A stretch of 64,000 nucleotides of DNA. It comes from Ilumatobacteraceae bacterium. Lineage in GTDB: Bacteria > Actinomycetota > Acidimicrobiia > Acidimicrobiales > Ilumatobacteraceae. Positions 15,075 through 50,912 of this stretch are shown here, piece by piece; the stretch's first letter is position 1; every line of letters begins with the position of its first letter. The DNA lies in assembly GCA_049458915.1 (NCBI GenBank), contig JBMUCX010000001.1:389-64388 (forward strand), given 5' to 3'. The translations under genes and the position numbers were made by a program. Below the pieces are notes generated by a model. That model worked only from the letters and a program-made list of their open reading frames with translations, searched no databases and was not told the origin of the DNA.

Positions 15075-15103
15075 GGGGTGCTCTGTCGGGTCCGGTGCTG
15101 CTG

Positions 15104-16071: not shown

Positions 16072-16226
16072 GGACGGGCTCCATCACAACACTCATTCGT
16101 CGTTCGTCAGTCTGGTCCACCGACGGCGATCCGTCGCCTCGGGCGGATGTGACCCTGGTCTCCGACACCGGATCATCGTACGAGCGGACGGATCGAACTT
16201 TCGCCCGGGAGGTGACGTTCCGACAC

Positions 16227-17638: not shown

Positions 17639-17875
17639 CGACAGAACGGATCGAGGAGATGGTGGGCGCCGATCTCCGGACCCACCCCACGCTACGCCCC
17701 GATCGGCGACCCCGACGACTGGCGACGCTCCGATATCGTTCCCGCCGTGCCCGCTCCGTCACGTCGTCACCACGCCGTGACCTCCCGGGTCGCCGGCGAA
17801 GTCGGATTCGACGTCGGACCCCAGTTCCGCTCGCTCCGTCAGCGGTACATCGCGGCGACGCGTCGGTCGAAACGA

Positions 17876-20874: not shown

Positions 20875-21492
20875 ATGAGTAGCGCCCGTCTCACCGCCGA
20901 CGCCCGACGTCAGCAGATCCTCGACGTGGCGATCGTCATCTTCGGCCGCGCCGGATACTTCGGGGCCTCGATGAACGACGTGGCCGAGGCGGCGGGGGTG
21001 ACGAAGCCGGTGCTCTATCAGCACTTCGACTCGAAGGGTCAGCTCTACGGGGCGCTCCTCGACGAGGTCGGAGCGAGAATGCTCGACTCGATCACCCGAG
21101 CCACCGCCGACTGCCGCGACGGCAAGGAGCAGACCGAACTCGGATTTCGCGCCTACTTCCGCTGGGTGGCACAGCGACACGACGAGTTCATGCTGCTGTT
21201 CAGCGGCTCGGCTCGACACGATCCCGAGTTCAGCACTCAGGTTCGACGGATCACGGACGCCGCCGCGGAGGCCATCGCTCCGCTCATCGCCGTCGACATC
21301 GACCCGGATCAGCGGGCGACGATCGCCCACGGACTCGTCGGCCTCGCCGAAGGGGTCAGTCGCCGACTCGTCGCACTCGGTCAGGATTTCGATCCCGACG
21401 AAACGGCAGCCGTCGTGAGCGGACTGGCCTGGGCCGGACTCAGGGCGACACCGCCGCTCGTGACTCAGGCCCGCCGGACCAACCCGCGATAG
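20875..21492 (+). CDS. TetR/AcrR family transcriptional regulator
   Basis: The HTH region reads RRQQILDVAIVIFGRAGYFGASMNDVAEAAGVTKPVLYQHFDSK. Confidence 0.9.
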   Translation: MSSARLTADARRQQILDVAIVIFGRAGYFGASMNDVAEAAGVTKPVLYQHFDSKGQLYGALLDEVGARMLDSITRATADCRDGKEQTELGFRAYFRWVAQRHDEFMLLFSGSARHDPEFSTQVRRITDAAAEAIAPLIAVDIDPDQRATIAHGLVGLAEGVSRRLVALGQDFDPDETAAVVSGLAWAGLRATPPLVTQARRTNPR

Positions 21493-24400
21493 CCGTCGAC
21501 GAATCCGGCGGACCGCAGCGCCGCAGCGACGTCGTCGGGTACCGGCCCGCCATCGACCCGACGCACCTCCACCGACCGCTCACAGCCGGATGCCACCAAG
21601 TCGGCGAGGACCGCGGCCCAACGACCGGACCCGCTCGCTGCCGGGAACGAGACGAGATGGTTGGACGACCGATCGAACCAGACGACGGGTGTGCCGTCCT
21701 CGAGCACCACGATCGCGCTGCCGTTCCGCGTCGGGCGGCCGGAGGTCGACGGCCACGGCAGCGTCGATCCATACGGCTGCGCAGGGTCGGTCGCCGCCAG
21801 GACGAGTGGACGGACGTCGTCGATGTCGGTCACGGGCTCCCGATGCGACCGCAGCCGGTCGACGGCACCCGGCAGGGCGAACTGGGCCCCTCCGAGTCCG
21901 ACGACGAAGTAGCCACGGCGGGCCTGTCCGCGCTCCTCGAGCACCTTCAGCACCGGGTAGACCGCTGCGTACCCGCCGACCACTCCCTCGGCGGCCGCCA
22001 CCTCCCGGGTCACGACGCCGTGCCGCTCCAGCAGTTGGATCGCACGCGCATGAGCGATCTCGGTCGACGTCCGGTCGCCCGGACCGGACATCGACGTCAA
22101 CAGACTCCAGCGACCCGCAGCAGCCGGTGGGCCGAGCCGGGTGAGTCGGACCGGTCGAGGACGACGAGCGGCGGTCCGGCGGGCCGCCGACGACGGCGGG
22201 CGGGCGACTCCTCCCGACCCGAGGAGTGCACGCAGCGGCGCCAACGTGTCGTTCGTGACCTCTCCCGCCCAGACGAGGTCCCAGAGTGCCACGAGCAACT
22301 CCGTGTCGGTCGCTGCAGCGTCCGCCGCACGGAGCTGACCCCAGAAGCTCGCGCCGTGTTCGGTGAGGAACCTACGAACGGCCTGGTGGAGTGGGCCCTC
22401 GAGAGGTTCACCGCTCGGCGGCCAGCCGGGCGCGAGAACGTCGAGTTGATCGGCGAAGCAGAGCCTGATGCGACCGTCCCGTCCTCCGATCGCGCCGGCT
22501 CCGGTCCAGACGACCTCGCCCGCCGCGCACAACTCGTCGAGGTCGGCCGGCCGGTATCCGCGGACCCGAGCGGGGAGGACATCGCGCTCCAGCGTCGACG
22601 CCACGAGCGGTGCACCGGCGAGGACGCCCAGCGCGTCGACGAGGACGTCGACACCACCGCGGTCGGCCGGGATGCCGTGCCACCCGACGACGAATCGCGC
22701 CAACGCCGCTGGCTCGACCGGCTCGACGTCACGGCGCAACGCAGCGAGGGATCGCCGTCGCAACTGTCGCAGGACGTCGGCGTCACACCATTCGCGCTGC
22801 ACCCCGTCCGGACGGAACTCACCGCGCACCACGCGGTCCGACTCGGCGAGCGACCGCACGGCACCTTCGACCCGCTCGACGGTCGTCGCGAACCGCTCCG
22901 CCACTTCACCGAGGAGGAAGGGGCCGTGGGTTCGGGCGTAGCGCCCGACCAGCATCTCCAGCGGTCGGGTGATCGGATCGGTGAACGCCGTCGGCAATCC
23001 GCGCGGCAGCGCACACCCGAGGGCGTCGCGGTACGCGGCGGCGTCCTCGGCGGCGGCGTACCGGACCGCCGAGCCGACCATCACCTCGATCGCCCTCCGC
23101 TCGGCGAGCAGGACGCCGAGTCGATCGGCGCCGTCGGCATCACAGCGGGCGAGCACCTCGTCGAGCGTCAAGTCACCGACCGCACGGAGGACGTCGTGGA
23201 GTTCGTCCGCCGACCGGGCCTGCCGGTGCGCGGCGAGCCGCTGGAGTTCGAGCTCGACGTCGGCCAACACGGCCGGATCGAGGAGCTCGCGGAGCTCCTC
23301 GGCCCCCAGCAGTTCGCGCAGCAGATCCCGGTCGAGTGACAGCGCTGCCGCCCGACGTTCGGCGAGCGGAGCGTCTCCCTCGTACATGTACTGGGCGATC
23401 CAGTTGAACAGCAGGCTCGATGCCATCGGACTCGCCGACGGGGTGTCGACGCTGACGAGGCGGATCCGCCGTGACTGCAGACCGGCCAACACCTCGCGGA
23501 GCGCCGGTACGTCGAACACGTCCTGCACGCACTCGCGGGTCGTCTCGAGCAAGATCGGGAACGTCGGATACTTCGACGCGACGGCGAGCAGGTCGGCGGC
23601 ACGCTGGCGCTGCTGCCACAGCGGCGTCCGCCGATCCGGCCGGCGCCGTGGCAGCAGCAGCGCCCGCCCGGCGCACTCCCGGAACCGGGCGGCGAACAGC
23701 GAGGTCTGTGGGAGGCCCGATACGACCAGTTCGTCGACCTCGGTCGGATCGAGGACGAACACCTCCGGGTCGATCCGATCGGCCGACTCGGGCAGCCGGA
23801 TCACGATCCCGTCGTCGCTCCACATCGTCTCGACGGGGAGGTCGAAGCGGTCGAGCAGGCGACGCTCGATCGCCATCGCCCACGGTGCGTGGACGGGTGT
23901 GCCGAACGGGCTCAGGATGCAGATCCGCCAGTCACCGATCTCGTCGCGGAACCGCTCGACGACGATCGTCCGGTCGTCGGGGACGGCCCCGGTCGCCTCC
24001 ACCTGCTCGGCGACGTACTGGACGACGTTCGACGCAGCGAACGCATCGAGCCCGTACTCGGCGCCGAGGTGGGAGATCGCATCCCCGTCGAATCCTCGGA
24101 CCTCGCGGAGGAACGCTCCGACCGCTCGACCGAGTTCGAGCGGTCGACCGGGCCGATCACCCCTCCAGAACGGCATCTTGCCGGGCTCGCCCGGCGCCGG
24201 TGAGACGGTGACCCGCTGGAACGAGATGTCCTCGATCCGCCACGTCGACGCACCGAGCAGGAACGTCTCGCCGGGGCGACTCTCGTAGACCATCTCCTCG
24301 TCGAGTTCACCGACCCGCGTGCCGTCCGGGAGGAACACGCCATAGAGGCCCCGATCGGGGATCGTCCCACCGCTCGTGACGGCGAGCCGTTTCGCACCGT

Positions 24401-25934
24401 CACGCGCCCGGACGACATCGGTCACGCGGTCCCAGACGATCCGAGGCCGCAACTCGGCGAACTCCTCGCTCGGATACCGACCCGCCAGGAGGTCGAGGAC
24501 GTTGCCGAGCAACTCGTCGGGGAGTTCGTGGAAGCAGGCGCACCGCCGGACCAGGGCGGCGAGTTCGGCCACCGTCACCTCGGTCGACGCGGCGGTGTGA
24601 GCCACGATCTGCTGAGCGAGCACGTCGAGTGGGTTCCGCAGGTACCGGGACGACTCGATCTCCCCCGTGAGCATCCGACGGCCGACGACAGCCGCCTCGA
24701 CGAGGTCACCGCGGTGCTTGGGAAAGATCGTGCCGCGGCTCGTTCGGCCGACCGAGTGACCCGCCCGGCCGATTCGTTGCAGCCCCCGGCTGACGGCACC
24801 GGGGGACTCGATCTGGACGACGAGGTCGACGGCGCCCATGTCGATGCCGAGTTCCAGCGACGACGTGGCGACGATGCCTCGGAGTTCGCCCCGCTTGAGT
24901 TGGTCCTCGATCACGATCCGTTGCTCGCGGGCCAACGATCCGTGGTGGGCGCGGACGAGCTCGACCGGGTCCTCGCCGTCAGCCGGAGGGTGGAGTTCGT
25001 CGTGGAGTTCGTTCAGTTTGGCGGCGAGTCGTTCCGCCGCCCGCCGAGCGTTGCAGAACACGATCGTCGACCGGTGGGCGAGGACGAGTTGGAGCACCTG
25101 CGGATAGATGCTCGGCCAGATGCTGTTCCGCCGCTCCGCCATCGATCCCGCCGTCGGAGCCGCCCCGAACCCGTCCTCGGCAGGAGGCCGGGCCATGTCC
25201 TCCACCGGGACGACGACCTCCACCACGAGATCGTGTGACGCGCCCGGATCGACGATCCGGACCGGACGGGGCGTCTCGGCGTCGGCATAGCCACCGAGGA
25301 AGCGGGCGATCTCCTCGAGGGGGCGCTGCGTCGCCGACAGACCGATCCGCTGCGGAGGCGAGTCGGTGACGGTCTCGAGTCGCTCCAAGGTGAGCGCCAG
25401 GTGAGCACCGCGTTTGGTGGTCGCGAGTGCATGGATCTCGTCGATGATCACGGTCTCGACCCCGCGGAGCGTCTCACCGGCTGCCGACGTCAACATGAGG
25501 TAGAGCGACTCCGGTGTCGTGATCAGCAGGTCCGGCGGTCGACGGACGAGTTTCTGCCGCTCGTTCGACGGTGTGTCCCCCGTCCGCATCGCCACCTCCG
25601 GGGCCACGAACGGCACTCCGATCCGCTCGGCGGCGAGCCCGATCCCGACCAGTGGGGCACGAAGGTTCTTCTCGATGTCGAACGCCAGCGCGCGCAACGG
25701 CGACACGTAGAGGACCCGGGTGCGTCGGGTCCGGTCATCGGGCGGCGGCGTCGTCACGAGACGATCGATCGAGGCCAGGAACGCCGTGAGCGTCTTGCCC
25801 GAGCCGGTCGGCGAGCAGATCAGGGTGTGCTCGCCTCCGGCGATGTACGGCCACCCGGCGACCTGCGGAGGGGTCGGCTCCGGGAACGACGACGCGAACC
25901 ACTCCCGGACCGCTGGCGAGAACGCCTCGAGCAC
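21465..25934 (-). CDS. lhr: Lhr-family ATP-dependent DNA helicase (large helicase-related)
   Basis: The N-terminus LEAFSPAVREWF...PTPPQVAGWPYIAGGEHTLICSPTGSGKTL, the DEIH box and a length of about 1490 aa fit Lhr. The start is uncertain (GTG 25934, alternatives up to 26036). Confidence 0.88.
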   Translation of the reverse strand: MLEAFSPAVREWFASSFPEPTPPQVAGWPYIAGGEHTLICSPTGSGKTLTAFLASIDRLVTTPPPDDRTRRTRVLYVSPLRALAFDIEKNLRAPLVGIGLAAERIGVPFVAPEVAMRTGDTPSNERQKLVRRPPDLLITTPESLYLMLTSAAGETLRGVETVIIDEIHALATTKRGAHLALTLERLETVTDSPPQRIGLSATQRPLEEIARFLGGYADAETPRPVRIVDPGASHDLVVEVVVPVEDMARPPAEDGFGAAPTAGSMAERRNSIWPSIYPQVLQLVLAHRSTIVFCNARRAAERLAAKLNELHDELHPPADGEDPVELVRAHHGSLAREQRIVIEDQLKRGELRGIVATSSLELGIDMGAVDLVVQIESPGAVSRGLQRIGRAGHSVGRTSRGTIFPKHRGDLVEAAVVGRRMLTGEIESSRYLRNPLDVLAQQIVAHTAASTEVTVAELAALVRRCACFHELPDELLGNVLDLLAGRYPSEEFAELRPRIVWDRVTDVVRARDGAKRLAVTSGGTIPDRGLYGVFLPDGTRVGELDEEMVYESRPGETFLLGASTWRIEDISFQRVTVSPAPGEPGKMPFWRGDRPGRPLELGRAVGAFLREVRGFDGDAISHLGAEYGLDAFAASNVVQYVAEQVEATGAVPDDRTIVVERFRDEIGDWRICILSPFGTPVHAPWAMAIERRLLDRFDLPVETMWSDDGIVIRLPESADRIDPEVFVLDPTEVDELVVSGLPQTSLFAARFRECAGRALLLPRRRPDRRTPLWQQRQRAADLLAVASKYPTFPILLETTRECVQDVFDVPALREVLAGLQSRRIRLVSVDTPSASPMASSLLFNWIAQYMYEGDAPLAERRAAALSLDRDLLRELLGAEELRELLDPAVLADVELELQRLAAHRQARSADELHDVLRAVGDLTLDEVLARCDADGADRLGVLLAERRAIEVMVGSAVRYAAAEDAAAYRDALGCALPRGLPTAFTDPITRPLEMLVGRYARTHGPFLLGEVAERFATTVERVEGAVRSLAESDRVVRGEFRPDGVQREWCDADVLRQLRRRSLAALRRDVEPVEPAALARFVVGWHGIPADRGGVDVLVDALGVLAGAPLVASTLERDVLPARVRGYRPADLDELCAAGEVVWTGAGAIGGRDGRIRLCFADQLDVLAPGWPPSGEPLEGPLHQAVRRFLTEHGASFWGQLRAADAAATDTELLVALWDLVWAGEVTNDTLAPLRALLGSGGVARPPSSAARRTAARRPRPVRLTRLGPPAAAGRWSLLTSMSGPGDRTSTEIAHARAIQLLERHGVVTREVAAAEGVVGGYAAVYPVLKVLEERGQARRGYFVVGLGGAQFALPGAVDRLRSHREPVTDIDDVRPLVLAATDPAQPYGSTLPWPSTSGRPTRNGSAIVVLEDGTPVVWFDRSSNHLVSFPAASGSGRWAAVLADLVASGCERSVEVRRVDGGPVPDDVAAALRSAGFVDGYRGLVRRA

Positions 25935-26034
25935 GTGGTGATGGGCGATGTGGCGAGCGTACGCCGGGCGGCCGACACCCGACACGGCACAGGTTGGTCG
26001 GGGCGCGCCGACCGGCCAGACTCGGAGGTCCCCC

Positions 26035-27714
26035 ATGAGTTCGATCACCCTCCGCCCCTGGCAGCGCGCTGCGTTCGAACTCTTCCGGGCCGGTGACGGG
26101 CCGGACTTCCTGGCCGTGGCGACACCCGGCGCCGGCAAGACGACCTTCGCCCTGGCCTGTGCCCGCGCCCAACTGTCGGACTGGGCCGCAGGCGGCAGCG
26201 CCCGCCGCCTGGTCGTCGTCGCGCCGACGAGCCATCTCAAGGTGCAGTGGTCGCTCGCAGCCCACCGGATGGGCCTCCAACTCGACCCGGACTGGTCGCC
26301 GGGTCAGGGTGTCGCTCGCGATCTCCACGGGATCGTCACGACGTACCAGCAACTGTCGACGGGCCCGGCGGCCGACAAGATGCGCGGTATCGCCGCCGGA
26401 GGGATGGTGATCCTCGACGAGGTCCACCACGCCGGCGACGAGCGCGCCTGGGGGGACGGAGTGCTCCGCTCCTTCGAGGTCGCCGAGCGCCGCCTGGCCC
26501 TGTCGGGCACGCCCTTCCGCAGCGACAGCGCCAGGATCCCGTTCGTCCGCTACGACACCACTGCCGAAGGCGACCTCGCTCACGCCGACTACACCTACGG
26601 CTACGCCGACGCCCTTCGCGACGGTGGAGTGGTGCGACCCGTCTACTTCCCGCGGTTCGACGGCCAGATGGAATGGTCGACACCGTCCGGCGACGTGCTC
26701 CGCGCATCGTTCGACGACGCCCTCGCCCGGGATCAGGTCTCGGCTCGGCTCCGCACGGCGCTGAGCCTCGACGGGGACTGGATCGTCACGGTCCTCGGGC
26801 AGGCCCACGACCGACTCCGCCGGATCCGACAGGAGCAGCCCGACGCCGGCGGGCTGGTGATCGCCTCCGATCAGGAGCACGCCCACGGGGTCGCTCGCTT
26901 GCTGCGGTCCCGATTCGATGCACCGGCCGAGGTCGTCGTCAGCGACGATCCGACGGCATCGCGCAAGATCGCCGACTTCGCGGATGCTTCGCGGCCGTGG
27001 CTCGTCGCGGTGCGGATGGTCTCCGAGGGGGTCGACATCCCTCGACTCCGTGTCGGTGTGTACGCCACCACGACGACGACCGAGTTGTTCTTCCGGCAGG
27101 CGGTCGGACGGTTCGTGCGATGGCAAGCCGGACGCGCCTCCCAGAAGGCGTACGTGTACGTCCCCGACGACCCCCGCCTCCGCCACCACGCGTTCCAGAT
27201 CGCCGAAGCACGACGTCACGTGTTGCGTCCCCCGTCGACGGACGAACAGGACGCGCGACCAGGGGACGGCTCCGAACTCGATGTGCAGGTCCACATCGAC
27301 GACCGCATCGAGCAGTTGTCGCTGTTCTCGGTGGTCTCGTCGACGGCGACCGGCGTGAGCTTCCACGCCGTCACCGAGACCGGGGTCGAACTGTTCGACG
27401 ACGAACCCGACCCGGCCGACCCCTCGTTCGTCGACGATCCGGGACTCGTCGTCGACCTGCCCGACGTCCCGACCGAAGCGGGACTCGTGCCGTGGGGCTC
27501 GCTCAGCATCGCCGAGCAGAAGGACGACCTGCGGACCCGCAACGCCGACATCGCCAAACGACTCGTCGACATCACCGGCTGGAACCACGCCCGGGTTCAA
27601 GGCGAGATGAACCGCCTCGCCGGGGTGACGTCGGTGACGAGCGCCACCGTCGATCAGCTCGAGCGTCGGCTCCGGTACGCCGAGTCCTGGCTGCGTCGCC
27701 TCCAGCGGTCCTGA
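26035..27714 (+). CDS. Superfamily 2 DEAD/DEAH-box helicase (ResIII/COG1061-like)
   Basis: GGAGG lies 7 nt upstream of the ATG. Motifs are LRPWQ, Walker A (TPGAGKTT), the DEVH box and SGTPFRSD. The gene is divergent from lhr. Confidence 0.85.
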   Translation: MSSITLRPWQRAAFELFRAGDGPDFLAVATPGAGKTTFALACARAQLSDWAAGGSARRLVVVAPTSHLKVQWSLAAHRMGLQLDPDWSPGQGVARDLHGIVTTYQQLSTGPAADKMRGIAAGGMVILDEVHHAGDERAWGDGVLRSFEVAERRLALSGTPFRSDSARIPFVRYDTTAEGDLAHADYTYGYADALRDGGVVRPVYFPRFDGQMEWSTPSGDVLRASFDDALARDQVSARLRTALSLDGDWIVTVLGQAHDRLRRIRQEQPDAGGLVIASDQEHAHGVARLLRSRFDAPAEVVVSDDPTASRKIADFADASRPWLVAVRMVSEGVDIPRLRVGVYATTTTTELFFRQAVGRFVRWQAGRASQKAYVYVPDDPRLRHHAFQIAEARRHVLRPPSTDEQDARPGDGSELDVQVHIDDRIEQLSLFSVVSSTATGVSFHAVTETGVELFDDEPDPADPSFVDDPGLVVDLPDVPTEAGLVPWGSLSIAEQKDDLRTRNADIAKRLVDITGWNHARVQGEMNRLAGVTSVTSATVDQLERRLRYAESWLRRLQRS

Positions 27715-41385: not shown

Positions 41386-42681
41386 TCAGGCTCCGATGAC
41401 GCGGATGAAGCTGCCGACGCGTCGGACGGCATCGAGGTCCCGGAGCAGGCGGATGGTCGCCTGGACCGACGCCTCGCGAGCCTCGTGGGTGATGAAGACG
41501 AGGCGGGCGTCGGGGCCGTTACCTTCTTGCTCGGCGGCACGGATGCTCACGCCCTGGGCGGCGAAGGCACCGGTGACGGCGTGGAGCACCCCGGGTTGGT
41601 CGGCGACGTCGAGTGAGATCAGGTACTCGGCGCTGGTCTCATCGATCGCCCGGATCGCGGCTCGGCCGAACCTGCCGAGCGCCCCGTGCGTCCGCTGAGA
41701 CGAGTTGACCGCTGCATCGATCACGTCACCGAGCACCGCCGATGCGGTCGGGCTCCCGCCGGCGCCACGTCCGTAGAACATGAGTTGCCCGACGGCGTCA
41801 CCCTCGACGAACACGGCGTTGAAGCTGTCGCGCACGCTGGCGAGCGGATGGTGGAGCGGGACCATCGCCGGGTGCACGCGCACGGCGATCTCGCCCGTCG
41901 CCGGGTCGCGCTCGGCGATACCGAGCAGCTTCACCACGTAACCGAGCCGCTGGGCGACGGCGATGTCGGCTGCGGTGATGCCGCTGATGCCCTCGTGATA
42001 GACGTCGCCGGCGACGACCTTCGCCCCGAACGCGATCGAGGCGATGATGGCTGCCTTGGCCCCGGCATCGAATCCCTCGACATCGGCGGTCGGGTCACGC
42101 TCGGCGAAGCCGAGTTCCTGCGCCTCGGCGAGTGCCTCGCCGTAGTCGGCGCCCTCGTCGCTCATCTTGGTCAAGATGAAGTTGGTGGTCCCGTTGAGGA
42201 TTCCCATGACCCGGGTGATCGGCTCGCCCCGCAGGCTCTCGCGCAGCGGGCGGATCAGCGGGATCCCACCGGCGACCGCTGCTTCGAACAGCAGGTCGAC
42301 GCCGTGCTCGTCGGCGAGCGCGAACAGTTCGGCGCCGACGTTGGCGAGGAGTTCCTTGTTCCCGGTCACGACCGGCTTGCCCGACGAGAGTGCCGTTGCG
42401 ATCAACTCCCGGGCCGGCTCGATCCCGCCGATCACCTCGACGACGAGGTCGACGTCGGGATCGGTGACGACCGCCATGGCATCACGCGTGAGGACCCCGT
42501 CGGCCATCACGATCCCGCGGTCGCGCGACATGTTGCGGACCGCGATCCGGGTGATCTCGAGGCGGAGGCCGGTCCTGGCCTCGATGGCATCGGCCTGACG
42601 CTCGACGAGGGGGACGAGCGCGCTCCCGACATTGCCGCAGCCGAGCAGGCCGATCCGGATCGTTCGTCGTTCGTTCGCCAC
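41386..42681 (-). CDS. hom: Homoserine dehydrogenase
   Basis: IRIGLLGCGNVGSA (NAD fold) and a C-terminal ACT domain are present. The start is placed at GTG 42681, because the ATG at 42750 would collide with the divergent crotonase start. Confidence 0.9.
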   Translation of the reverse strand: MANERRTIRIGLLGCGNVGSALVPLVERQADAIEARTGLRLEITRIAVRNMSRDRGIVMADGVLTRDAMAVVTDPDVDLVVEVIGGIEPARELIATALSSGKPVVTGNKELLANVGAELFALADEHGVDLLFEAAVAGGIPLIRPLRESLRGEPITRVMGILNGTTNFILTKMSDEGADYGEALAEAQELGFAERDPTADVEGFDAGAKAAIIASIAFGAKVVAGDVYHEGISGITAADIAVAQRLGYVVKLLGIAERDPATGEIAVRVHPAMVPLHHPLASVRDSFNAVFVEGDAVGQLMFYGRGAGGSPTASAVLGDVIDAAVNSSQRTHGALGRFGRAAIRAIDETSAEYLISLDVADQPGVLHAVTGAFAAQGVSIRAAEQEGNGPDARLVFITHEAREASVQATIRLLRDLDAVRRVGSFIRVIGA

Positions 42682-42748
42682 GAGCCGCAGGCTAGTGGCC
42701 GGTCGACCCGGGTCGTCCGGGTCGGGGTCGACGTGGTTGAGTGACGTC

Positions 42749-43531
42749 ATGCGCAAGCCTCGCCTCACGACACTTCGTCTCGTCCACCGTTCCGACGACG
42801 CCGTCGCGACGATCCTGTTGAATCGGCCGGATCGGCTCAATGCCCTGTCGCGGGTCCTGCTCGCCGAGATCGTCGAAGCATGCCGCTGGCTCGACTCGAC
42901 CCACGAGATCAAGGCGGTGGTGGTTCGTGGCGAAGGTCGGGCGTTCTCGGCCGGGTTCGATCTGTCCGATTTCCGACAGTTGGAGGGCGCCTCGAATCCG
43001 CGCGACACGGCTGACCTCGGACGAATCGCCGCCGAGGCGTTGACCGAGGTCCGGCCCATGACGATCGCCGCCGTCCACGGGCACTGCGTCGGCGGCGGGC
43101 TCGTGCTCGCTGCGGCGTGCGATCTGCGGATCGCGTCGGACGATGTCCGATTCTCCATCCCCGAGGTCGACCTCGGGATCCCGCTCGCCTGGGGTGGCAT
43201 CCCTCGACTCGTCCGCGAGCTCGGACCGGCGGTCACCAAGGAGTTGGTGCTGACCTGTCGACCGTTCGGGGCCGACGAGGCGCTCGGCCTCCGGTTCCTG
43301 AACCGAGTCGTACCTCGGGACGAACTCGTCGGTGCCGCCGAGTCGCTGGCGGGCGAGTTGGCGAGCAAGCCGGCCTTCTCGCTGCGGGCGACCAAGATGC
43401 ACGTGAACGCGGTGATGAACGAGATCGCCGGGGTCGGGCGCAACGCGAACGACGCCGATTCCCTCGTCGCCGCTCTCCACGACCCCGAATCCCGGGCGGC
43501 GAGCCGCAACTACCTGCAGTCCCGCTCCTGA
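42749..43531 (+). CDS. Enoyl-CoA hydratase/isomerase family protein
   Basis: ILLNRPDRLNAL and FSAGFDL are present. The stop codon TGA (43529-43531) lies inside the left REP palindrome. Confidence 0.85.
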   Translation: MRKPRLTTLRLVHRSDDAVATILLNRPDRLNALSRVLLAEIVEACRWLDSTHEIKAVVVRGEGRAFSAGFDLSDFRQLEGASNPRDTADLGRIAAEALTEVRPMTIAAVHGHCVGGGLVLAAACDLRIASDDVRFSIPEVDLGIPLAWGGIPRLVRELGPAVTKELVLTCRPFGADEALGLRFLNRVVPRDELVGAAESLAGELASKPAFSLRATKMHVNAVMNEIAGVGRNANDADSLVAALHDPESRAASRNYLQSRS

Positions 43532-43561
43532 CCACGAGGTGTCAGACACCTCGTGGTCAGG
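43527..43561. repeat. REP-like palindrome (15-bp arms, 5-nt loop), left flank of the RAYT
   Basis: The sequence is cctgaccacgaggtg tcaga cacctcgtggtcagg. It contains the stop codons of both convergent flanking genes. Confidence 0.9.
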
Positions 43562-44351
43562 CGATGAGGCGATCGACGGCGTACCGCAGGCCCGGCTCGG
43601 CGACCACCCTTCCTCTGGCTCGCCGCAGCGCCCGCTGAACGGTGTCGCTCCGGCCGGAGGCGAGGTGCTCGAGTAACGCGGGCGCGGTCGTGCCCAGTTC
43701 GTCGGCCACGGCGAGCAATACGGTCCTCGCCAGTCGAGGCGCCGGGACGAGCTCGTCGGCGAACTCCTCGACCGCGAACTCCGCCAAGATCTCGAGGAGT
43801 ACCGGATCGAGTTCCCCGAGCGGCCGGACCATGGCAGCGACGAACGCCGCACGATCGTCGCCGTGGAGTCCGAGCACGACATCGGTTCGCAGCCACGACG
43901 GCGCTGCCCGATGCCCCAGGTACGTCCGGAGACTGGACCAGCGATACGACTCGACCGCCCGTCGGCCCGACAACACCGCCGGGTTGAGATGCACGTAGTG
44001 CGTCGCTGCGACGAGATAGGCGTCGGTGTCGATCTCCTTGGATCGGAAGCGGCCTCTCAGGATCGGGCCGTCGTTCCCGTGCCGGCGGTTGAACCTCCGG
44101 GTGACGACCGCCTGGAGCCACTGCATCATCGTCGACAGGTTGCCGTCGGGGCAGTGCACCACGAGGTGGAAGTGATTCGGCATCAGGCAGTAGGCGTGCA
44201 CCTCGATGTCGTGACGCTCGCACGCCTCACCGAGAGCTGCGCCGAACCCGACCCGATCGGCATCCGACGTGAAGATGTCGCGCCGTCCGGCTCCACGGTT
44301 CATCACGTGGAACCACCCGACCTGTCGATGCTGCCGCAGCGCTCGCCCCAT
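43557..44351 (-). mobile_element. REP-associated tyrosine transposase (RAYT, IS200/IS605 Y1 HUH family) with a C-terminal DnaA_C-like HTH tail
   Basis: The HUH motif is in YCLMPNHFHLVV and the catalytic Tyr region is THYVHLNP. The start is at ATG 44351 (MGRALRQ...FHVMNRG). The gene is flanked by inverted palindromic repeats. Confidence 0.85.
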
Positions 44352-44386
44352 CACCTGATCGTGATGACGGGGTGTGACGCAGTTGG

Positions 44387-45688
44387 TCAGGACCACGAGG
44401 TGTCTGACACCTCGTGGAGGTCGGTGGCGAGGAGGTCGTCGAAGGTCTCGCGGCGGATGACCAGTCGGGCGTCGCCGTCGCGTGCGAACACCACGGGCGG
44501 GCGGGTGATCGAGTTGTAGTTCGAGCCCATCGACCGCGAGTACGCCCCGGTCACTGGTGTCGCCACGAGGTCGCCGACGGCGACGTCGGACGGCAGTCGG
44601 GCCTCGAACAGCAGCACGTCACCACTCTCGCAGTGCTTCCCCACCAGACGACCCGACGCAGTGCGTTCGGCGAACGGTGCACGCGGCAGGAACGCCTCGT
44701 ACCCGGATCCGTAGAGCACCGGCCGAGGGTTGTCACTCATCCCGCCGTCGACCGCCCAATAGGTCCGCACCCCTGGAATCGGCTTGATCGTGCCCAGCGT
44801 GTACACGGTCACCGCTGCGCCGGCGACGATCGAACGGCCCGGCTCGACGCTCACGTCCGCAGTGACTCCGAGCGATGCACACGCATCGCGCACGACGTGG
44901 CCCCACTGCGTGATCGTCGGCGCCTCCTCCGTCTCGACGTAGGCCACACCCAACCCACCGCCGACCACCAACTCGGGGAGTCCGAGCGGCGCAGCGAATC
45001 CGGCCATGACCTCGATCGCCTTGGCGAAACTCGAGGCGGCGAACACGTTCGAACCGATGTGACAGTGCACGCCGACCAGTTCGACACCCGGCGACGTCTC
45101 GGCACGACGCACCGCCCGGAGAGCGTCGCCGTTCGCGAGGTTGAACCCGAACTTGGAGTCGTCCTGCCCGGTGGAGATGAACTCGTGGGTGTGCGCGTGG
45201 ACCCCGGGCGTCACGCGGATCAGCACGCTCGGCGCCGGACCGGTGCCAGCGGCGTGCAGTGCGTCGAGACGATCGAGTTCGTCGAATGAATCGACGACGA
45301 TCCGGCCGACACCCTCGGTGACCGCCCGTCGCAACTCGTCGACGCTCTTGTTGTTGCCGTGCAGGACCAACGACGCCGGTGGCACGCCGGCCGCCAGGGC
45401 GATGTGCAACTCGCCACCGGTCGCCACGTCGAGACGGAGCCCTTCGTCGTGGGCGAGTCGGGCCATCGCACGACACAGGAACGCCTTGGTCGCGTACACG
45501 ACATTGCCGGCACCGAACGCGGCCACGGCTTCCCGGCACCGGTTGCGGAGATGCTCCTCGTCGTAGACGAGCACCGGCGTACCGAACTCGGCAGCGAGAT
45601 CCTGCAGCGAGCAGCCGCCGATCGTGAGCCAACCGTCCTCGCCGACGACTGCCGAGTCGGGCAGCAGCCGAGGCGGGAGAGCCGTCAC
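44387..45688 (-). CDS. lysA: Diaminopimelate decarboxylase
   Basis: The PLP-binding region YATKAF and the motifs CESGD and GAYSRSM are present. The start is placed at GTG 45688, 17 nt after the upstream stop. The last 9 codons are encoded by the REP element. Confidence 0.9.
   Translation of the reverse strand: MTALPPRLLPDSAVVGEDGWLTIGGCSLQDLAAEFGTPVLVYDEEHLRNRCREAVAAFGAGNVVYATKAFLCRAMARLAHDEGLRLDVATGGELHIALAAGVPPASLVLHGNNKSVDELRRAVTEGVGRIVVDSFDELDRLDALHAAGTGPAPSVLIRVTPGVHAHTHEFISTGQDDSKFGFNLANGDALRAVRRAETSPGVELVGVHCHIGSNVFAASSFAKAIEVMAGFAAPLGLPELVVGGGLGVAYVETEEAPTITQWGHVVRDACASLGVTADVSVEPGRSIVAGAAVTVYTLGTIKPIPGVRTYWAVDGGMSDNPRPVLYGSGYEAFLPRAPFAERTASGRLVGKHCESGDVLLFEARLPSDVAVGDLVATPVTGAYSRSMGSNYNSITRPPVVFARDGDARLVIRRETFDDLLATDLHEVSDTSWS
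44391..44417. repeat. REP-like palindrome, right flank of the RAYT (inverted copy of the left one)
   Basis: The sequence is gaccacgaggtg tctga cacctcgtgg. Its reverse complement is identical to 43532-43558 over 27 nt. It lies inside the last codons of lysA. Confidence 0.9.
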
Positions 45689-45704: not shown

Positions 45705-46571
45705 TCACGGCTGACCGCCCTTGGTCTTGAATTCCCACCAGAATCCACCATCGGCGAGCGTCGTGCCCTGTTCGTTGATCGCACGGACCTGCCACTCGTA
45801 GTTGGTGGTCGCACCGAGTGGTCCGGCGAGCGTGACGCTCGTTCCGGACTCCGACGACCACACACCCCCGTCGCAGGAGTTGTTCAGCGTGTTGTCGAGG
45901 CACCACTCGTACCGGTCCGCGTCGGCGGAAGGATTCCAGCGCAGGGTCAGACCCGTCCGGTTCTGGCCGCCAGCGCCGGCGGTCGGAGTGACCTTCCCGA
46001 ATGTGCCCGGCAGACCTGGAACGGTGGTCGTGGTCGTCGTGGTCGTCGTCGTCGGGATCGTCGTCGTGGTCGTCGGCGACACCGTGGTTCCCGGTGCTTC
46101 GGCGAAGATGTCGAAGTCGACGCGCCAGTCGTCCACCCACGCCCCGTAGCTGTACGTCGGCACGTCGACGAGCACCTCGACACTACGGTTGCGCTCGCCG
46201 GTCGAGTCGACGATCAGGTGGTACGTGAGCACCGTCAGGTGCCCGCCACTCGACGCCACACGGGCACACTCGGCCGTGATCGTCGATCCGTTGTCGACGA
46301 GCGACGCCGGGTAGGCGACCGAGTTGTAGGTCGGGGATTCACCGCAGGTGGTGTACGGATCGACCGTCCGCTTCGCGAACTCCTCGACGACCCACGAGGC
46401 CACGTTCGAGGCATCGATGTTCGACAACGTCCGGTCGGAGGTGACCCCCGCGGTTCGCAACCCGGCCGTGGCGTAACTCGCGATCGCCATGACGATGGCC
46501 GCCATCACCACGGTCAGGATCAGGGTGAGGACCAGGGTGGACCCCTCGTCGCGCTGTCGCGGTGCCATCAT
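45705..46571 (-). CDS. PilX_N-like pseudopilin with a poly-Thr linker and a C-terminal FN3-like domain
   Basis: The N-terminus is MMAPRQRDEG|STLVLTLILTVVMAAIVMAIASYA. The linker is TTTTTIPTTTTTTTTTT. The C-terminus is LTLRWNPS...YEWCL...YEWQVRAINEQG. The ATG overlaps the upstream stop as ATGA. Confidence 0.65.
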   Translation of the reverse strand: MMAPRQRDEGSTLVLTLILTVVMAAIVMAIASYATAGLRTAGVTSDRTLSNIDASNVASWVVEEFAKRTVDPYTTCGESPTYNSVAYPASLVDNGSTITAECARVASSGGHLTVLTYHLIVDSTGERNRSVEVLVDVPTYSYGAWVDDWRVDFDIFAEAPGTTVSPTTTTTIPTTTTTTTTTTVPGLPGTFGKVTPTAGAGGQNRTGLTLRWNPSADADRYEWCLDNTLNNSCDGGVWSSESGTSVTLAGPLGATTNYEWQVRAINEQGTTLADGGFWWEFKTKGGQP

Positions 46572-48196
46572 CCCCAGAAGATCCCGTCCGTTGCGAAGAA
46601 GGCCCGCTCGTCACTGAGGTCGCGGCCGTACATGTAGAAATCGCGGGCGATGACTCCACCAGCGATGCTCGTGTAACTCGTCACCGTGGCGTACGGGGCG
46701 AACACCGTTCCAGCAAGGCTCACCGAACCCACCGCAGGCGCCCGGATGATGACCTCCGCCGCCGACGGGAAGTTCCAGATCACGTGCACCGTGCTCTGGC
46801 CGAGACCGAGGATCGTGGGCGGCACGAACTCCACCGTCGCGCCTGCCTCACTGGCCACATTGATGATGAGCGGAGCGTCCTGGCTCACCACATTGGCCGG
46901 CAGATCGATCTGTTCCCCGGCGAGATCGGCGAGGTTGCTCGGCTCCATGTTCAGCACGTTCGCCGAGTCATCGGTCAGGTCCAGATAAATGGGTTCGTCG
47001 CTCGCCGTGCCGTCGAAGTCGTTCGGAATGACCGAGTGGAACGAGCAGGTTCGGTCGCAGCTCCTCGGCAACTGGGCCAGCCGCTCGGAACACAAGGTCA
47101 ACTCGTAGAACGACAAGCCGGGCTCGAGCGGCAACGGCCCTTGGGTGTCCTCGACACTGGCCTGGCTGGTCGACTGCACGATGATCCGCGGTCGGTCGGG
47201 CGGGCCGGGGGCATCCGACTCGAAGATCGTGATCTCGCTCGTGGGATTTCCGAGTTCGTCGAGCGTCGGGACGACGTGGTGGTCGTTGCCGATCCGCACG
47301 TCGAAGCCGGGCTTCACCGTCACCGATCCGGACGAACCACCCCAGTTGATCGCAGTCGCCATGAGTCCGAGACCGGCGGGCACAGGTGCATCAGCGTCCT
47401 GAGGTTGGGCCTGCGCAACCTCGACCGCTCCGTCGAACGTCAGCGTTCCGCCGACGTACAGAGCGCTCTTGACGGACGTGCCCGAGAGGAAGACGTCGCC
47501 GATCACGAAACTGGCGATGTTCGCCGCGGCCGCCAGTGGCTGCCCGTCGCACAAACCCGTGGTGGCGTACGGGTTCTCGGGCCGAGGTGCCGCATGGAAG
47601 GTTTCGAGTCGTCCTCGCTGGACGTAGTCGATCCGAACCGTGTCGACTCGCCGATACGCATCCTCGGCGACCACGACCTCGGCCCGGTGCAGCGGCTCGG
47701 CACCCTCGACCGGCAGGTCGAGCGAGTCGGCGATGTTGACCCGCACGACTTCTTCCCACCCGGTGTCGGTCAGATTGCAGACGTATCGGTCGATGCGCGC
47801 CGACGACCTCGAGTCGGGCACCTCCAAGCGGTAGGCGATCCGTTCGTCGTCGGCCACGTCGATCCGCAGGAGGTTCTCGTTGCCGGATTCGGCGCAGCCC
47901 GATCCGCTGTCACCCCCGGCCCCACCGATGGTGGCCCGGTAATCGACCGGATCGAGCGATCCCGAGCCGACGTCGAGCGGGAAATAGTTGACGACCTGCC
48001 GTGTGTCCTGCGCCTCGGCAGTGGACACGACCACACCTTCCTCCGTCCGGAAGATGACGACCACGGCCGCCGCGATCACTCCCGTGACGAGTGTGAACAT
48101 CACGATCGTCACGATGATCTCGACGAGCGTGATACCAGCGTCACGTCGCTGCTCGTCGGGAGCTCCACTCGTGGTCATCGTGGTCATCGTGCTCAC
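46568..48196 (-). CDS. Large prepilin-type N-terminal domain protein (PilW-position) with a choice-of-anchor-A-like passenger domain
   Basis: The N-terminus is ...DEQRRDAG|ITLVEIIVTIVMFTLVTGVIAAAVVVI. The C-terminal region VHVIWNFPSAAEVIIRAP...GTVFAPYATVT...GGVIARDF resembles choice-of-anchor A by recall. The start is GTG 48196 (GTGA overlap) or ATG 48187. Confidence 0.65.
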   Translation of the reverse strand: MSTMTTMTTSGAPDEQRRDAGITLVEIIVTIVMFTLVTGVIAAAVVVIFRTEEGVVVSTAEAQDTRQVVNYFPLDVGSGSLDPVDYRATIGGAGGDSGSGCAESGNENLLRIDVADDERIAYRLEVPDSRSSARIDRYVCNLTDTGWEEVVRVNIADSLDLPVEGAEPLHRAEVVVAEDAYRRVDTVRIDYVQRGRLETFHAAPRPENPYATTGLCDGQPLAAAANIASFVIGDVFLSGTSVKSALYVGGTLTFDGAVEVAQAQPQDADAPVPAGLGLMATAINWGGSSGSVTVKPGFDVRIGNDHHVVPTLDELGNPTSEITIFESDAPGPPDRPRIIVQSTSQASVEDTQGPLPLEPGLSFYELTLCSERLAQLPRSCDRTCSFHSVIPNDFDGTASDEPIYLDLTDDSANVLNMEPSNLADLAGEQIDLPANVVSQDAPLIINVASEAGATVEFVPPTILGLGQSTVHVIWNFPSAAEVIIRAPAVGSVSLAGTVFAPYATVTSYTSIAGGVIARDFYMYGRDLSDERAFFATDGIFWG

Positions 48197-48807
48197 CCCT
48201 CGCCGTCCGGTCCGTTGATGCCGGGCGTGAGTTCGACATCGACCTCGCCCGGTTCGAATGCGCCCGGAGGAGCCGGCGGGATCGGCCCGCACGGGAGCAC
48301 CTCACACGGCGGTGGTGCGAGCGGACGCTTGACGACCTTCGCCGCGCGTGACGAATCACCCAGCGTCGCGCGCAGCTCCACTTCCTGAAGGCGATGCGCC
48401 GTGGTGCACCCGCTCACGAAGGCACTTCCGTTCCAGAAGCGAACGGCCACGACCTCGATCTTGCCTCGGCCGCCTTCGGCGAGTTCGGCCTGGATGACGT
48501 CTCGATAACTCGTCGCCACGTCCGTACCGGAATCGCAGGCGACGAACGGGACGAGTTCGGGGTACGTGTCACCGACGAGCACGCTCGCCTCCGAGAGCAG
48601 CGACTGGATGTCGGCGACCTCGTCGCTCGTACGTGCTCCCACGGTTGCCGCCGACATCGAGGCGAGCACCGCCACGCCTGCCGTCCCGAGCAACACGATC
48701 GCGACCAGCAACTCGAGGAACGACGCGCCGAGGTCGCGCGGCCGCACGGACCCGGAGTCGACGCTCCCGGGGTTCGGACTGGTGGTGGTCGGGACGGTGG
48801 AGGTCAT
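48193..48807 (-). CDS. Prepilin-type N-terminal cleavage/methylation domain protein (minor pilin/pseudopilin-like)
   Basis: The sequence is ...VRPRDLG|ASFLELLVAIVLLGTAGVAVLA, with Glu at +5. Paired Cys residues lie in the globular part and the tail is Pro-rich. A shorter leader is possible from the internal GTG (VDSGSV...). Confidence 0.7.
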   Translation of the reverse strand: MTSTVPTTTSPNPGSVDSGSVRPRDLGASFLELLVAIVLLGTAGVAVLASMSAATVGARTSDEVADIQSLLSEASVLVGDTYPELVPFVACDSGTDVATSYRDVIQAELAEGGRGKIEVVAVRFWNGSAFVSGCTTAHRLQEVELRATLGDSSRAAKVVKRPLAPPPCEVLPCGPIPPAPPGAFEPGEVDVELTPGINGPDGEG

Positions 48808-48968: not shown

Positions 48969-50705
48969 TCACATGACGGCCGGGGCATCGATGCCGAGCA
49001 GGCCGAGTGCGTGCTCGAGCGTTCGCGCCGTGACATCACACAGCGCCAGGCGGCTCGAACGAACCGGCTCGTCGGCCTTCATCACCGGACAGTGCTCGTA
49101 GAAACCCGTGAAGTCCTGTGCCAGTTCGAACAGATACGTGCACAGGCGATGCGGGGCGTAGCCATCCGTCGTATCCGCCACGACCGTCGGATACGCGAGG
49201 AGCCGGATCGCCAGCGACCGCTCCTGCGCCGTGTCGAGCGCGATTCCGCTCCCTCGGACGCTCGCCCGGTCGACGCCGGCCCGACGGAAGATGGAGCAGA
49301 TGCGTGCGTGCGCGTACTGCAGGTAGGGCGCCGTGTTGCCGTCGAAGGCGAGCATCCGATCCCAATCGAACACGTAGTCCTTGATCCGATCGGTCGACAG
49401 ATCCGCGTACTTCACCGCACCGATGCCGATCATCCGAGCGATCTCGGCCCGCTCCGCCGTCGACAGGTCGGGGTTCTTCTCGGCGACCGCATTGGCTGCG
49501 CGGTCGACGGCCTCGTCGAGCAACTCGATGAGCTTGACCGAGTCGCCCGATCGGCTCCGCAACATCTTGCGGTCCTCGCCGAGCACGCTCCCGAACGCAA
49601 TGTGCACGGCCTCCGCCGGGGACCGCAACCAGCCGGCCATACGAGCCACTTCGAACACCATCTCGAGATGCTGGGACTGCGGAGCGCCGACGACGTAGAG
49701 CAGCAGATCGGCGCCGAGTCGTTCGACGCGATCGATGACACACGTGAGGTCGCTGGTGGCGTAGTTGAAGCCTCCGGTGCGGGCCTGGACGATCAGCGGC
49801 AGCGGTTCGTTGTCACGGTTGGTGAACCCCGGCGGGAACACGACGGTCGCGCCATCGCTCTCCTCGAGCAAGCCGCCGGCCCGGAGACGCTCGATCGTCT
49901 CGGGCATCTTCGGCTGGTACACGGACTCTCCCGCCAGGTCGTCGTCGGTGAGTTGCACCCCGAGGCGGGAATAGATGGTGTTGAAGTATTCGGCGGACAT
50001 CCGGCACAGCCGCTGCCACAGGGCGATGGTGCCGGGGTCGTACGCCTGGAGCAGGACGACCCGCTCACGCGCCCGGGCCTGGAACTCCTCGGAGTCGGCG
50101 AACTTCGCATTGGCCGCCTTGTAAAAGGCGTCGAGATCGCCCTGCTGCATCCCTTCGGCGGCGACGTCCTCGCCGATGTCCAGGAGGTGCTCGATCAGCA
50201 TGCCGAACGGACGACCCCAGTCACCGATGTGGTTCTCGCGGATCACGGTGTGGCCCTGGAACTGCAGCAGGCGGACGATCGCATCACCGATCACCGTCGA
50301 TCGGAGGTGACCGACGTGCATCTCCTTGGCGACATTGGGTGCCGAGTAGTCGACGACGGCGGTCCGCATCGTCGACGCCACCGGCACGCCGAGTCGCTCG
50401 TCGACCGCGACCTCGGCGAGTCGGCTCGCCAGGAACGAATCGTCGAAGGTCAGGTTCACGAAGCCGGGTCCGGCGATCTCGACGGCGCTGCAGACACCCT
50501 CGAGCACTCCGGAGTCGACGACCCGCTGTGCGATCTCGCGCGGGTTGGACCCGAGTTGCTTCGCGAGCGGAAGCGCACCGTTGATCTGGGCGTCGGCACG
50601 GTCGCTGGGCCGGACCACGGCATCGGCCGGTGATCCGGCGATGTCGGCGAACACCGGGGCGAGCAGGTCGGAGACGATGGTGATCGGGTCGGCCACGGCC
50701 GCCAT
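48969..50705 (-). CDS. argS: Arginine--tRNA ligase
   Basis: The HIGH-type motif (NVAKEMHVGHLRS) and the anticodon-binding C-terminal domain ending in ...APAVM are present. The start is at ATG 50705; the track ORF extension upstream runs through the tRNA gene. Confidence 0.93.
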   Translation of the reverse strand: MAAVADPITIVSDLLAPVFADIAGSPADAVVRPSDRADAQINGALPLAKQLGSNPREIAQRVVDSGVLEGVCSAVEIAGPGFVNLTFDDSFLASRLAEVAVDERLGVPVASTMRTAVVDYSAPNVAKEMHVGHLRSTVIGDAIVRLLQFQGHTVIRENHIGDWGRPFGMLIEHLLDIGEDVAAEGMQQGDLDAFYKAANAKFADSEEFQARARERVVLLQAYDPGTIALWQRLCRMSAEYFNTIYSRLGVQLTDDDLAGESVYQPKMPETIERLRAGGLLEESDGATVVFPPGFTNRDNEPLPLIVQARTGGFNYATSDLTCVIDRVERLGADLLLYVVGAPQSQHLEMVFEVARMAGWLRSPAEAVHIAFGSVLGEDRKMLRSRSGDSVKLIELLDEAVDRAANAVAEKNPDLSTAERAEIARMIGIGAVKYADLSTDRIKDYVFDWDRMLAFDGNTAPYLQYAHARICSIFRRAGVDRASVRGSGIALDTAQERSLAIRLLAYPTVVADTTDGYAPHRLCTYLFELAQDFTGFYEHCPVMKADEPVRSSRLALCDVTARTLEHALGLLGIDAPAVM

Positions 50706-50800: not shown

Positions 50801-50872
50801 CGCCCTCGTAGCTCAGGGGATAGAGCATCGGCCTCCGGAGCCGTGTGCGCAGGTTCGAATCCTGCCGAGGGC
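50801..50872 (+). tRNA. tRNA-Arg (anticodon CCG)
   Basis: Manual cloverleaf: acceptor stem GCCCTCG/CGAGGGC, D stem GCTC/GAGC, anticodon loop CTCCGGA, T arm GCAGG-TTCGAAT-CCTGC. CCA is not encoded. Confidence 0.88.
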
Positions 50873-50912
50873 ACTCACTGGCGACCTCCCCGGAGAGCCA
50901 CTCCAGCCGCAA

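Follow-up and report, generated by a model that had tools for sequence, protein, structure and literature searches.

The minor-pilin sets GspI-J-K, PilV-W-X, TadE-F-G and KilL-M-N make up tip complexes, which start the assembly of the fibre and display variable modules, and their capping subunits, for example GspK, PilX and TadG, lack the glutamate at position +5 (Glu5). Here we describe a three-gene cassette with a comparable layout, genes A, B and C, from an uncultured Ilumatobacteraceae bacterium of the phylum Actinomycetota. The cassette lies between argS and lysA in a stretch of 64,000 nucleotides (NCBI GenBank assembly GCA_049458915.1, contig JBMUCX010000001.1, positions 389 to 64,388 of the forward strand); this whole stretch is referred to as the window, and window coordinates are counted from its first letter. 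With a probability that we put at about 0.6, proteins A, B and C represent the minor-pilin tip (initiation) complex of a type IV filament whose machinery is encoded elsewhere, the cassette most likely resembling the GspI/J/K or KilLMN heterotrimer that primes and decorates a filament. In this reading, the trio adds an uncharacterised and lineage-restricted example to the known minor-pilin tip cassettes that contain modular pilins.

By analogy of layout, the closest published parallel appears to be KilLMN of Myxococcus xanthus. In Myxococcus, interchangeable tips are encoded by four paralogous Tip clusters of three genes each, of which three lie apart from the kil clusters, and each cluster requires a prepilin peptidase (PMC12075869). 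As with the trio, there are several paralogous cassettes per genome, some of them away from the machinery; the variable module resides on the largest subunit, and the tips prime assembly and give the pilus its specificity (PMC12075869). The two differ in that KilLMN belongs to a Tad-like system of a diderm predator, whereas the trio has N_methyl-type N-termini, comes from a monoderm actinobacterium and yields no TadE/TadG matches; the modules of the trio (choice-of-anchor A and fn3) are also unlike those of KilLMN. A monoderm parallel is provided by Streptococcus sanguinis, in which PilA, PilB and PilC are described as a heterotrimeric tip that includes modular pilins (PMC8179133; cited in PMC12075869). 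PilB (vWA) and PilC (lectin) are like B in having a functional module grafted at the pilin C-terminus in a monoderm host, and PilA-PilB-PilC are like the proposed trio in being three minor pilins of an adhesive tip complex (PMC8179133, PMC9934059). The S. sanguinis genes, however, sit inside a pil locus with its machinery, the grafted modules are different ones, and no sequence similarity to the trio is detectable beyond the class III signal peptide. Like the trio as we interpret it, GspI-J-K and PilV-W-X are specified by co-transcribed pilin-like genes, include a capping subunit without Glu5 and initiate the fibre from its tip, and paralogues and relatives of the trio give weak, sub-threshold matches to GspI, GspH, GspJ, PilV and PilX_N. 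The trio departs from these sets in falling below the family cut-offs, in having neither a GspH/FimU-like fourth gene nor an adjacent major pilin or machinery, and in carrying a 300-residue adhesin module on its middle subunit.

Genes A (48193..48807; 204 residues; small prepilin-like protein, position 1 of the trio), B (46568..48196; 542 residues from a GTG start; large modular prepilin-like protein, position 2) and C (45705..46571; 288 residues; position 3) are consecutive open reading frames (ORFs) on the minus strand, as are all parts of them given below. They overlap in a GTGA at 48196-48193 (A/B) and an ATGA at 46571-46568 (B/C). Alternative starts for B are offered by ATG codons at 48187 and 48178, 9 or 18 nucleotides (nt) downstream of the GTG, and gene callers in three assemblies have picked a downstream ATG to give 539 or 536 residues. 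In related loci, A and B overlap by 4 nt (the genes are adjacent in the locus L025) and B and C by 1-7 nt in most relatives; because the overlaps recur across these loci, the coupling is tight and conserved whichever start of B is used. Translational coupling that is kept in most related loci fits a fixed-stoichiometry complex.

Protein A begins with a charged leader ending in RPRDLG (Gly27) and followed by ASFLELLVAIVLLG, B with RRDAG (Gly18 in the 539-residue numbering) followed by ITLVEIIVTIVMF and C with RDEG (Gly10) followed by STLVLTLILTVVMAAIV. All three thus have the class III arrangement of a charged leader, Gly at -1 and about 20 hydrophobic residues; Glu is found at +5 in A and B, and Leu in C. 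A six-frame regular expression for G-x4-E followed by a hydrophobic run gave three matches in the 64 kb, namely the N-termini of A and B and a site internal to a Na/Ca exchanger, and this rarity, together with the invariance of the pattern in homologues, argues that it is not due to chance. Taken together, the sequences support the assignment of all three proteins as prepilin-type. A preliminary description of the window, made from its letters, had already reported three coupled prepilin-like ORFs on the minus strand between argS and lysA, with Glu at +5 in A and B and not in C, and its coordinates, N-termini and GTGA/ATGA overlaps are exact. The minor-pilin tip-set layout that it recognised, a small protein with Glu5, a large one with Glu5 and then one without, likewise stands, and one of the outcomes that it named as refuting, a G-x4-E segment that varies among orthologues, was not observed: Gly and Glu are invariant in the A and B families. 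The coupled arrangement of two proteins with Glu5 and one without is itself present and conserved in relatives; the heteromer is a prediction.

Comparisons with the B family, its paralogues, known structures and distant relatives lead us to regard B as a modular pilin from a large unnamed pilin-module family, as judged from sequence. Among 5.8 billion clustered proteins, 16 homologues make up the family; no member whose N-terminus is intact lacks the Gly, Glu at +5 does not vary, and a pair of Cys is conserved as well. A PF07963 match is precomputed for five of the 16, and the Joint Genome Institute (JGI) names three of the homologues choice-of-anchor A / prepilin-type N-terminal cleavage/methylation domain proteins. 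The pilin module (47573..48187; about 205 residues) consists of the class III signal peptide, the alpha1 helix and a beta-rich globular domain with the conserved Cys98 and Cys137 (539-residue numbering). The first 205 residues of B align with the position-2 paralogues described below, some of which are this module alone (206-221 residues). When a profile of the position-2 module was compared with the PDB, all 15 matches (best E 3e-4) were type IV pilins; the alignments lie at the N-terminal helix, in many cases at mature residue 1. An exhaustive search of 1.84 billion representative proteins returned 1750 relatives of the module; among the 150 listed, whose lengths run from about 100 to 1468 residues, the match is N-terminal in nearly all. 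For 99 distant relatives, N_methyl was matched by 90 (E<=1e-3), TIGR02532 by 76 and the HpsC pseudopilin family by 14, and the C-terminal parts contain pAdhesive_15, Big_9, cadherin-like, Ig-like, PKD or VWA domains; eight of the 99 combine choice-of-anchor A with an N-terminal prepilin-type segment, as B does. Of the named families, GspH, HpsC and the Verrucomicrobia cassette pseudopilins come closest to the module.

Behind the pilin module, residues 220-521 of B (46634..47539) form a predicted choice-of-anchor A / pAdhesive_15 (ice-binding-like) beta-helix. Matches to PF20597 (E 1.2e-25; 91.3 bits, cut-off 23.8) and TIGR04215 (66.1 bits, cut-off 29) are well above the cut-offs of these hidden Markov models, and for the modelled solenoid the best Foldseek match in the PDB is 7bwx_A, an ice-binding protein from a fungus (E 5.9e-3, probability 1.00). 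These residues of B are thus significantly placed in the domain family. The fold of choice-of-anchor A domains is that of ice-binding proteins; the domains occur in adhesive proteins, and the Thermus pilus-tip pilin ComZ is among their structural neighbours; the bacterial proteins that contain them are surface-exposed and use one of three conserved types of transmembrane anchor (10.1101/2023.03.06.531300). B and the JGI-annotated homologues differ in that the anchor is an N-terminal prepilin-type segment. The AlphaFold2 (AF2) model of B has a helix at 21-60, seven strands between 83 and 199, a linker and, over 226-525, a beta-solenoid that has a long helix at its side.

Might these be ordinary surface proteins, in which an uncleaved N-terminal signal anchor holds adhesin domains at the cell surface and no filament is made? 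Choice-of-anchor A domains are typical of cell-anchored surface proteins (10.1101/2023.03.06.531300), no machinery was found in the seven genomic contexts examined, and the window proteins lie below the N_methyl threshold, all of which a plain anchor would accommodate. An invariant Gly-x4-Glu within the membrane helix is, however, not expected of such an anchor, nor is homology to proteins that pass prepilin models; some middle members of related cassettes are bare pilin modules with no adhesin to hold, and A likewise lacks an adhesin domain. We therefore find a signal anchor very improbable.

A second comparison raised by the beta-helix is with ComZ of Thermus thermophilus, which, like B, is pilin-like and has a large beta-solenoid whose fold class is that of ice-binding proteins; its proposed place is the pilus tip, in company with PilA2, a small partner pilin, and ComZ can bind DNA (PMC6561018). 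By extension, the trio could belong to a short wall-spanning pseudopilus of the competence (Com) or type II secretion system (T2SS) type, in which the solenoid of B would receive DNA or a substrate, a role proposed for ComZ. Besides the place of ComZ among the structural neighbours of choice-of-anchor A domains, this alternative can draw on the weak ComGE and GspI matches of position-1 paralogues (E 3.5e-4 to 0.05, below cut-off) and on the matches of distant relatives to HpsC, a pseudopilin of polysaccharide secretion. The resemblance to ComZ is nevertheless limited: there is no sequence similarity, ComZ is not in the top 50 Foldseek matches, and the solenoid of B is appended by a linker behind a complete pilin module, whereas that of ComZ is built into the pilin framework. 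The cadherin-like, Big_9, Ig-like and VWA modules of the paralogues are typical adhesin modules, and no com or T2SS genes lie nearby. We consider such a pseudopilus distinctly unlikely.

Protein A belongs to a family in which D-G-x-x-F-x-E and two Cys (Cys91 and Cys134) are invariant across 12 homologues. When the PDB was searched with this family, by sequence and by profile, nothing relevant came up; an hhalign comparison with the position-1 paralogues, most of which are above the N_methyl cut-off, gave a probability of 99.6% (E 1.8e-23). The AF2 model shows a 56-residue N-terminal helix (23-78), a second helix, a 3-stranded sheet and a disordered Pro-rich tail. Long N-terminal helices followed by beta-sheet give the models of A and B topologies that look pilin-like. 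The tail (48196..48321), a Pro-rich linker ending in VELTPGINGP, is present in 12 of 12 family members, two with a variant terminal motif (LTPNLP, LNPGING), and absent from five of five paralogous position-1 proteins; its conserved motif is ...V(E/S)LTPGING(P), modelled with low confidence apart from one short strand at residues 190-192. To judge by these sequences, the tail is restricted to position-1 pilins that are paired with a choice-of-anchor A middle pilin. We hypothesize that it may be a docking strand for the choice-of-anchor A domain; overlap with the start of B could account for part of its conservation.

Protein C, annotated at NCBI as a hypothetical protein of an Ilumatobacteraceae metagenome-assembled genome (MAG), is conserved over its N-terminal 155 residues in six orthologues, with Gly10 invariant. 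Comparison of its family with the position-3 paralogues by hhalign gave a probability of 97.3% (E 2.8e-11), one of those paralogues has a sub-threshold match to PilX_N (E 0.027), and sequence and profile searches of the PDB with the position-3 family found nothing relevant. C would be an atypical type IV pilin-like member, since it lacks Glu5, as do the capping subunits GspK and PilX. Its C-terminal part consists of a Thr/Pro-rich linker, read directly from the sequence (46003..46090), and a putative fn3-like domain (45762..45965; PF00041 fn3, E 0.002, below cut-off), and it varies among orthologues, which have other Ig-like repeat regions in its place. An adhesin-like tail had been assigned to C in the preliminary description; the weak fn3 match speaks for it, but the adhesin part of the cassette lies mainly in B.

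Identical or near-identical copies of the locus occur in GCA_049416225.1, GCA_049456695.1 and one Logan assembly, and at species level the closest relatives are MAGs of Ilumatobacteraceae and Acidimicrobiaceae. The complete Ilumatobacteraceae chromosome OY970375.1 also bears the trio. Beyond these, genome and metagenome scans queried with the B family found the trio in at least six other Acidimicrobiia contigs, the metagenome scan adding only short contigs. The A-B-C unit is conserved, with short overlaps or near-abutting genes, in six related loci (L004, L005, L006, L007, L025 and L026), whose proteins are 36-45% (A), 41-43% (B) and 40-47% (N-terminal part of C) identical to those of the window. 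In B and A orthologues from two Microflora Danica MAGs (MFD...; L006 10001-11570, L007 9458-11535), the matches are split across reading frames, and these frameshifts are probably assembly errors rather than pseudogenes. Except in L005, the trio stands beside one or two paralogous trios of equal layout, in which the middle gene is a bare pilin module (L025 and L026) or bears cadherin/Big_9 repeats (L004 and L006). The A family, the B module and the C family are each homologous, by sequence, to the corresponding members of the paralogous trios. Five of six position-1/2 paralogues tested are above the N_methyl cut-off (22.6-31.7 bits; one at 17.7), and four of the six are above that of TIGR02532. 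Since relatives bear one or two extra trios with other modules, or with none, we take the paralogous trios to suggest interchangeable tips.

A LarA-like gene, annotated as a nickel pincer cofactor-dependent isomerase, group 22 (NF052515), accompanies the paralogous pilin trios in five of the related loci, either interposed or adjacent to them (L004 13344-14572, L006 16140-17366, L007 13489-14250, L025 12863-14089 and L026 7260-8381; E 4.5e-126). The window has one trio and no LarA-like gene.

We read A-B-C as a tip or initiation complex because the order of a small protein with Glu5, a larger one with Glu5 and one without is that of GspI-J-K, PilV-W-X, TadE-F-G and KilL-M-N, and because of the Myxococcus and S. 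sanguinis parallels. As we envision it, the class III signal peptide would insert each protein into the membrane, and a prepilin peptidase encoded elsewhere would cleave after the conserved Gly. The three N-terminal helices would then bundle, with C, lacking Glu5, capping the bundle in the manner of GspK, PilX or TadG/KilN. The complex would prime polymerisation of a major pilin by an ATPase and a platform protein, also encoded elsewhere, and would end up at the filament tip, where the beta-helix of B and the fn3-like domain of C would act as adhesin or ligand-binding modules.

A number of results weigh against this proposal. Neither A (13.9 bits) nor B (18.0 bits) reaches the N_methyl cut-off of 21.2, and C has no significant match to any family, N_methyl included. 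None of the three reaches the cut-off of GspI/J/K, PilV/W/X, ComGD-G or TadE/F/G. The AF2 models are of moderate confidence, with a mean predicted local distance difference test score (pLDDT) of 69 for A and 72.5 for B, and Foldseek searches of the PDB found no significant pilin match for the model of A or for the pilin module of B; the evidence for a pilin fold is accordingly topological only. Additionally, no assembly genes were found within 10 kb of the trio in seven contexts (the window, L004-L007, L025 and L026), and no peptidase, ATPase, platform protein or major pilin was found in the 64-kb window or in the 10-kb flanks of the six loci. In profile searches such as those proposed in the preliminary description, most of the position-1/2 paralogues tested pass N_methyl and several pass TIGR02532, whereas A and B of the window stay below cut-off and the PilX_N and TadE thresholds are not reached; for A, B and C there is no match to TIGR01707, TIGR01711, TIGR02523 or PF14341, and the sub-threshold matches are confined to paralogues and relatives.

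How much should the absence of nearby machinery count? About 47 further ORFs of the window, scanned against Pfam, proved to be ordinary genes of housekeeping and metabolism; no ATPase of the PilB/PilT/CpaF kind was among them, nor a PilC/TadB platform protein, an A24 peptidase, PilM/N/O or an additional pilin, the small ORFs being covered by the regular expression only, and the statement in the preliminary description that the 64 kb are free of pilus machinery is borne out. What does not hold is its view of this absence as unexplained: Gram-positive pilin genes that are unlinked from biogenesis genes are documented (PMC3244431), as are the unlinked tip clusters of Myxococcus (PMC12075869). Nor is an undescribed class of filament, as had been suggested, needed, given that a different order of the class Acidimicrobiia is reported to have both type IVa genes (pilABCEMOTY1) and Tad genes (PMC12008989). 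With these precedents in mind, a window free of machinery is not anomalous. Searches of the literature for pili in Ilumatobacter or Ilumatobacteraceae found nothing specific, and the supplements of a superfamily survey do not list Ilumatobacter or Acidimicrobium.

If machinery is encoded elsewhere, of which type would it be? Tad is the commonest type IV filament in Actinobacteria, and many actinobacterial systems have no identifiable minor pilins (PMC6668835). The trio could in principle be the tip of a Tad (type IVc) pilus, an actinobacterial counterpart of TadE/F/G or KilL/M/N, with a TadV-type peptidase for its processing and CpaF/TadA for its assembly; a last, large subunit without Glu5 and with a C-terminal module, as in the TadEFG and KilLMN tips, would be in keeping with this, and so would unlinked paralogous copies (PMC12075869). 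The family matches point the other way: neither TadE (PF07811) nor the TadE/G-like family (PF13400) is matched at E<=1 by A, B, C or any of nine paralogues, the N-terminal sequences fit N_methyl/TIGR02532 (G followed by [FLM]TL[IV]E[LV]), which are of the type IVa/T2SS/Com type, and the named families nearest the B module are those given above (GspH, HpsC and the Verrucomicrobia pseudopilins). A Tad tip is unlikely in our view. With N_methyl-type N-termini and no TadE/TadG matches, the sequences favour a type IVa/Com-like machine over a Tad machine for the proposed tip complex.

In the window, the trio is embedded in the order argS, A, B, C, lysA, Y1 transposase, enoyl-CoA hydratase (opposite strand), hom, thrC, rho, rpmE, a gene for 334 residues without a Pfam match, prfA and prmC. 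Upstream, argS (48969..50705, minus strand; Pfam Arg_tRNA_synt_N, tRNA-synt_1d and DALR_1) is separated from A by 161 nt; downstream, 16 nt separate the stop of C from the GTG of lysA, the diaminopimelate decarboxylase gene (44387..45688, minus strand; Pfam Orn_Arg_deC_N and Orn_DAP_Arg_deC). We take argS-lysA-hom-thrC to be contiguous in Mycobacterium (Rv1292-Rv1295), and the actinobacterial block argS-lysA-hom-thrC ... rho-rpmE-prfA, presumably Rv1292-Rv1300 in M. tuberculosis, is found here with insertions. The gene order is thus compatible with insertion of the trio into a conserved housekeeping block, as the preliminary description had it, but the event is not a one-off, with the cassette occurring in other contigs as well. 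Comparison of argS-lysA synteny, which it had recommended, found the position to be common to L005 only, where B is 43%, ArgS 73% and LysA 77% identical; we regard the argS-lysA position as a lineage-specific site of one cassette. Recent horizontal transfer was considered as the origin of the insertion and rejected: there is no compositional signal (GC content of the trio 0.64-0.68, and 0.80-0.85 at third codon positions, with neighbours alike), and L005 has the same position with a B of such low identity.

The two gaps flanking the trio contain no match to a terminator or a sigma-70-type promoter in our scan, which makes co-transcription of the trio with lysA plausible from the sequence. For the argS-A gap, a regulatory RNA, promoter or terminator was rejected on the basis of that scan, the absence of an Rfam match (the sole match being a tRNA-Arg beyond argS), folding no better than that of shuffled sequence (z -1.45) and the absence of conservation relative to L005. 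The argS-lysA site probably provides the trio with read-through or constitutive expression alongside housekeeping genes and does not signify a functional link to lysine or threonine synthesis. A further possibility is that the trios are a self-contained display device, in which interchangeable three-subunit pseudopilin stubs project adhesins through the wall and one cassette is always expressed. Prepilin peptidase would process the stubs, little or no major pilin would be needed, the cassette would be a fixed part of the essential argS-lysA-hom-thrC transcription unit, and the A tail (...LTPGINGP) would dock onto the beta-helix of B. We think this very unlikely; if true, it would be a new way to display choice-of-anchor adhesins in monoderms.

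A tip complex of a type IV filament, the interpretation that we prefer, leaves current concepts unchanged and extends them to a new lineage, with a sequence profile for finding such cassettes and a large unnamed family of pilin modules. Actinobacterial type IV minor pilins are largely unidentified, and the trio and its paralogues constitute three uncharacterised protein families; for the globular parts of the trio proteins there is no Pfam model. A survey of the superfamily left many actinobacterial systems as 'generic', in part because no minor pilins were recognised (PMC6668835). The trio families look like the missing tip subunits in Acidimicrobiia, which are abundant in soil, freshwater and marine samples. 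That there are several cassettes whose adhesin modules are exchanged suggests that monoderm environmental bacteria have adaptable pilus tips, comparable to those shown recently in Myxococcus.

Other features of the window and its relatives can be noted briefly. A Y1_Tnp gene (an IS200/RAYT-like tyrosine transposase; 43557-44396, minus strand) separates lysA from hom, with a 10-nt overlap at the lysA stop, and the enoyl-CoA hydratase gene (42632-43531) is on the opposite strand to it; in L005, a PemK toxin gene fills the lysA-hom gap. The housekeeping block therefore takes insertions at several junctions. The tRNA-Arg gene (anticodon CCG; 50802-50874, plus strand) is divergent from argS and directly upstream of it. 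Sortase-dependent pilins were rejected as candidates, A, B and C having no LPXTG/LAXTG motif or C-terminal hydrophobic segment. As a separate observation, a sortase domain is found about 27 kb from the trio, at residues 479-601 of a 760-residue ORF (stop to stop; 16832-19111, plus strand). System I cytochrome c maturation genes (12616-16925, minus strand) encode CcmF, a CcmC-like Cytochrom_C_asm protein and CcmB, and a gene for a thiol oxidoreductase of the AhpC/TSA-Redoxin family lies just downstream of them (12039-12713). Finally, an Lhr-type helicase gene (21468-26303, minus strand) encodes about 1600 residues with all four Lhr winged-helix domains and is adjoined, on the other strand, by a second helicase gene of the DEAD/ResIII type.

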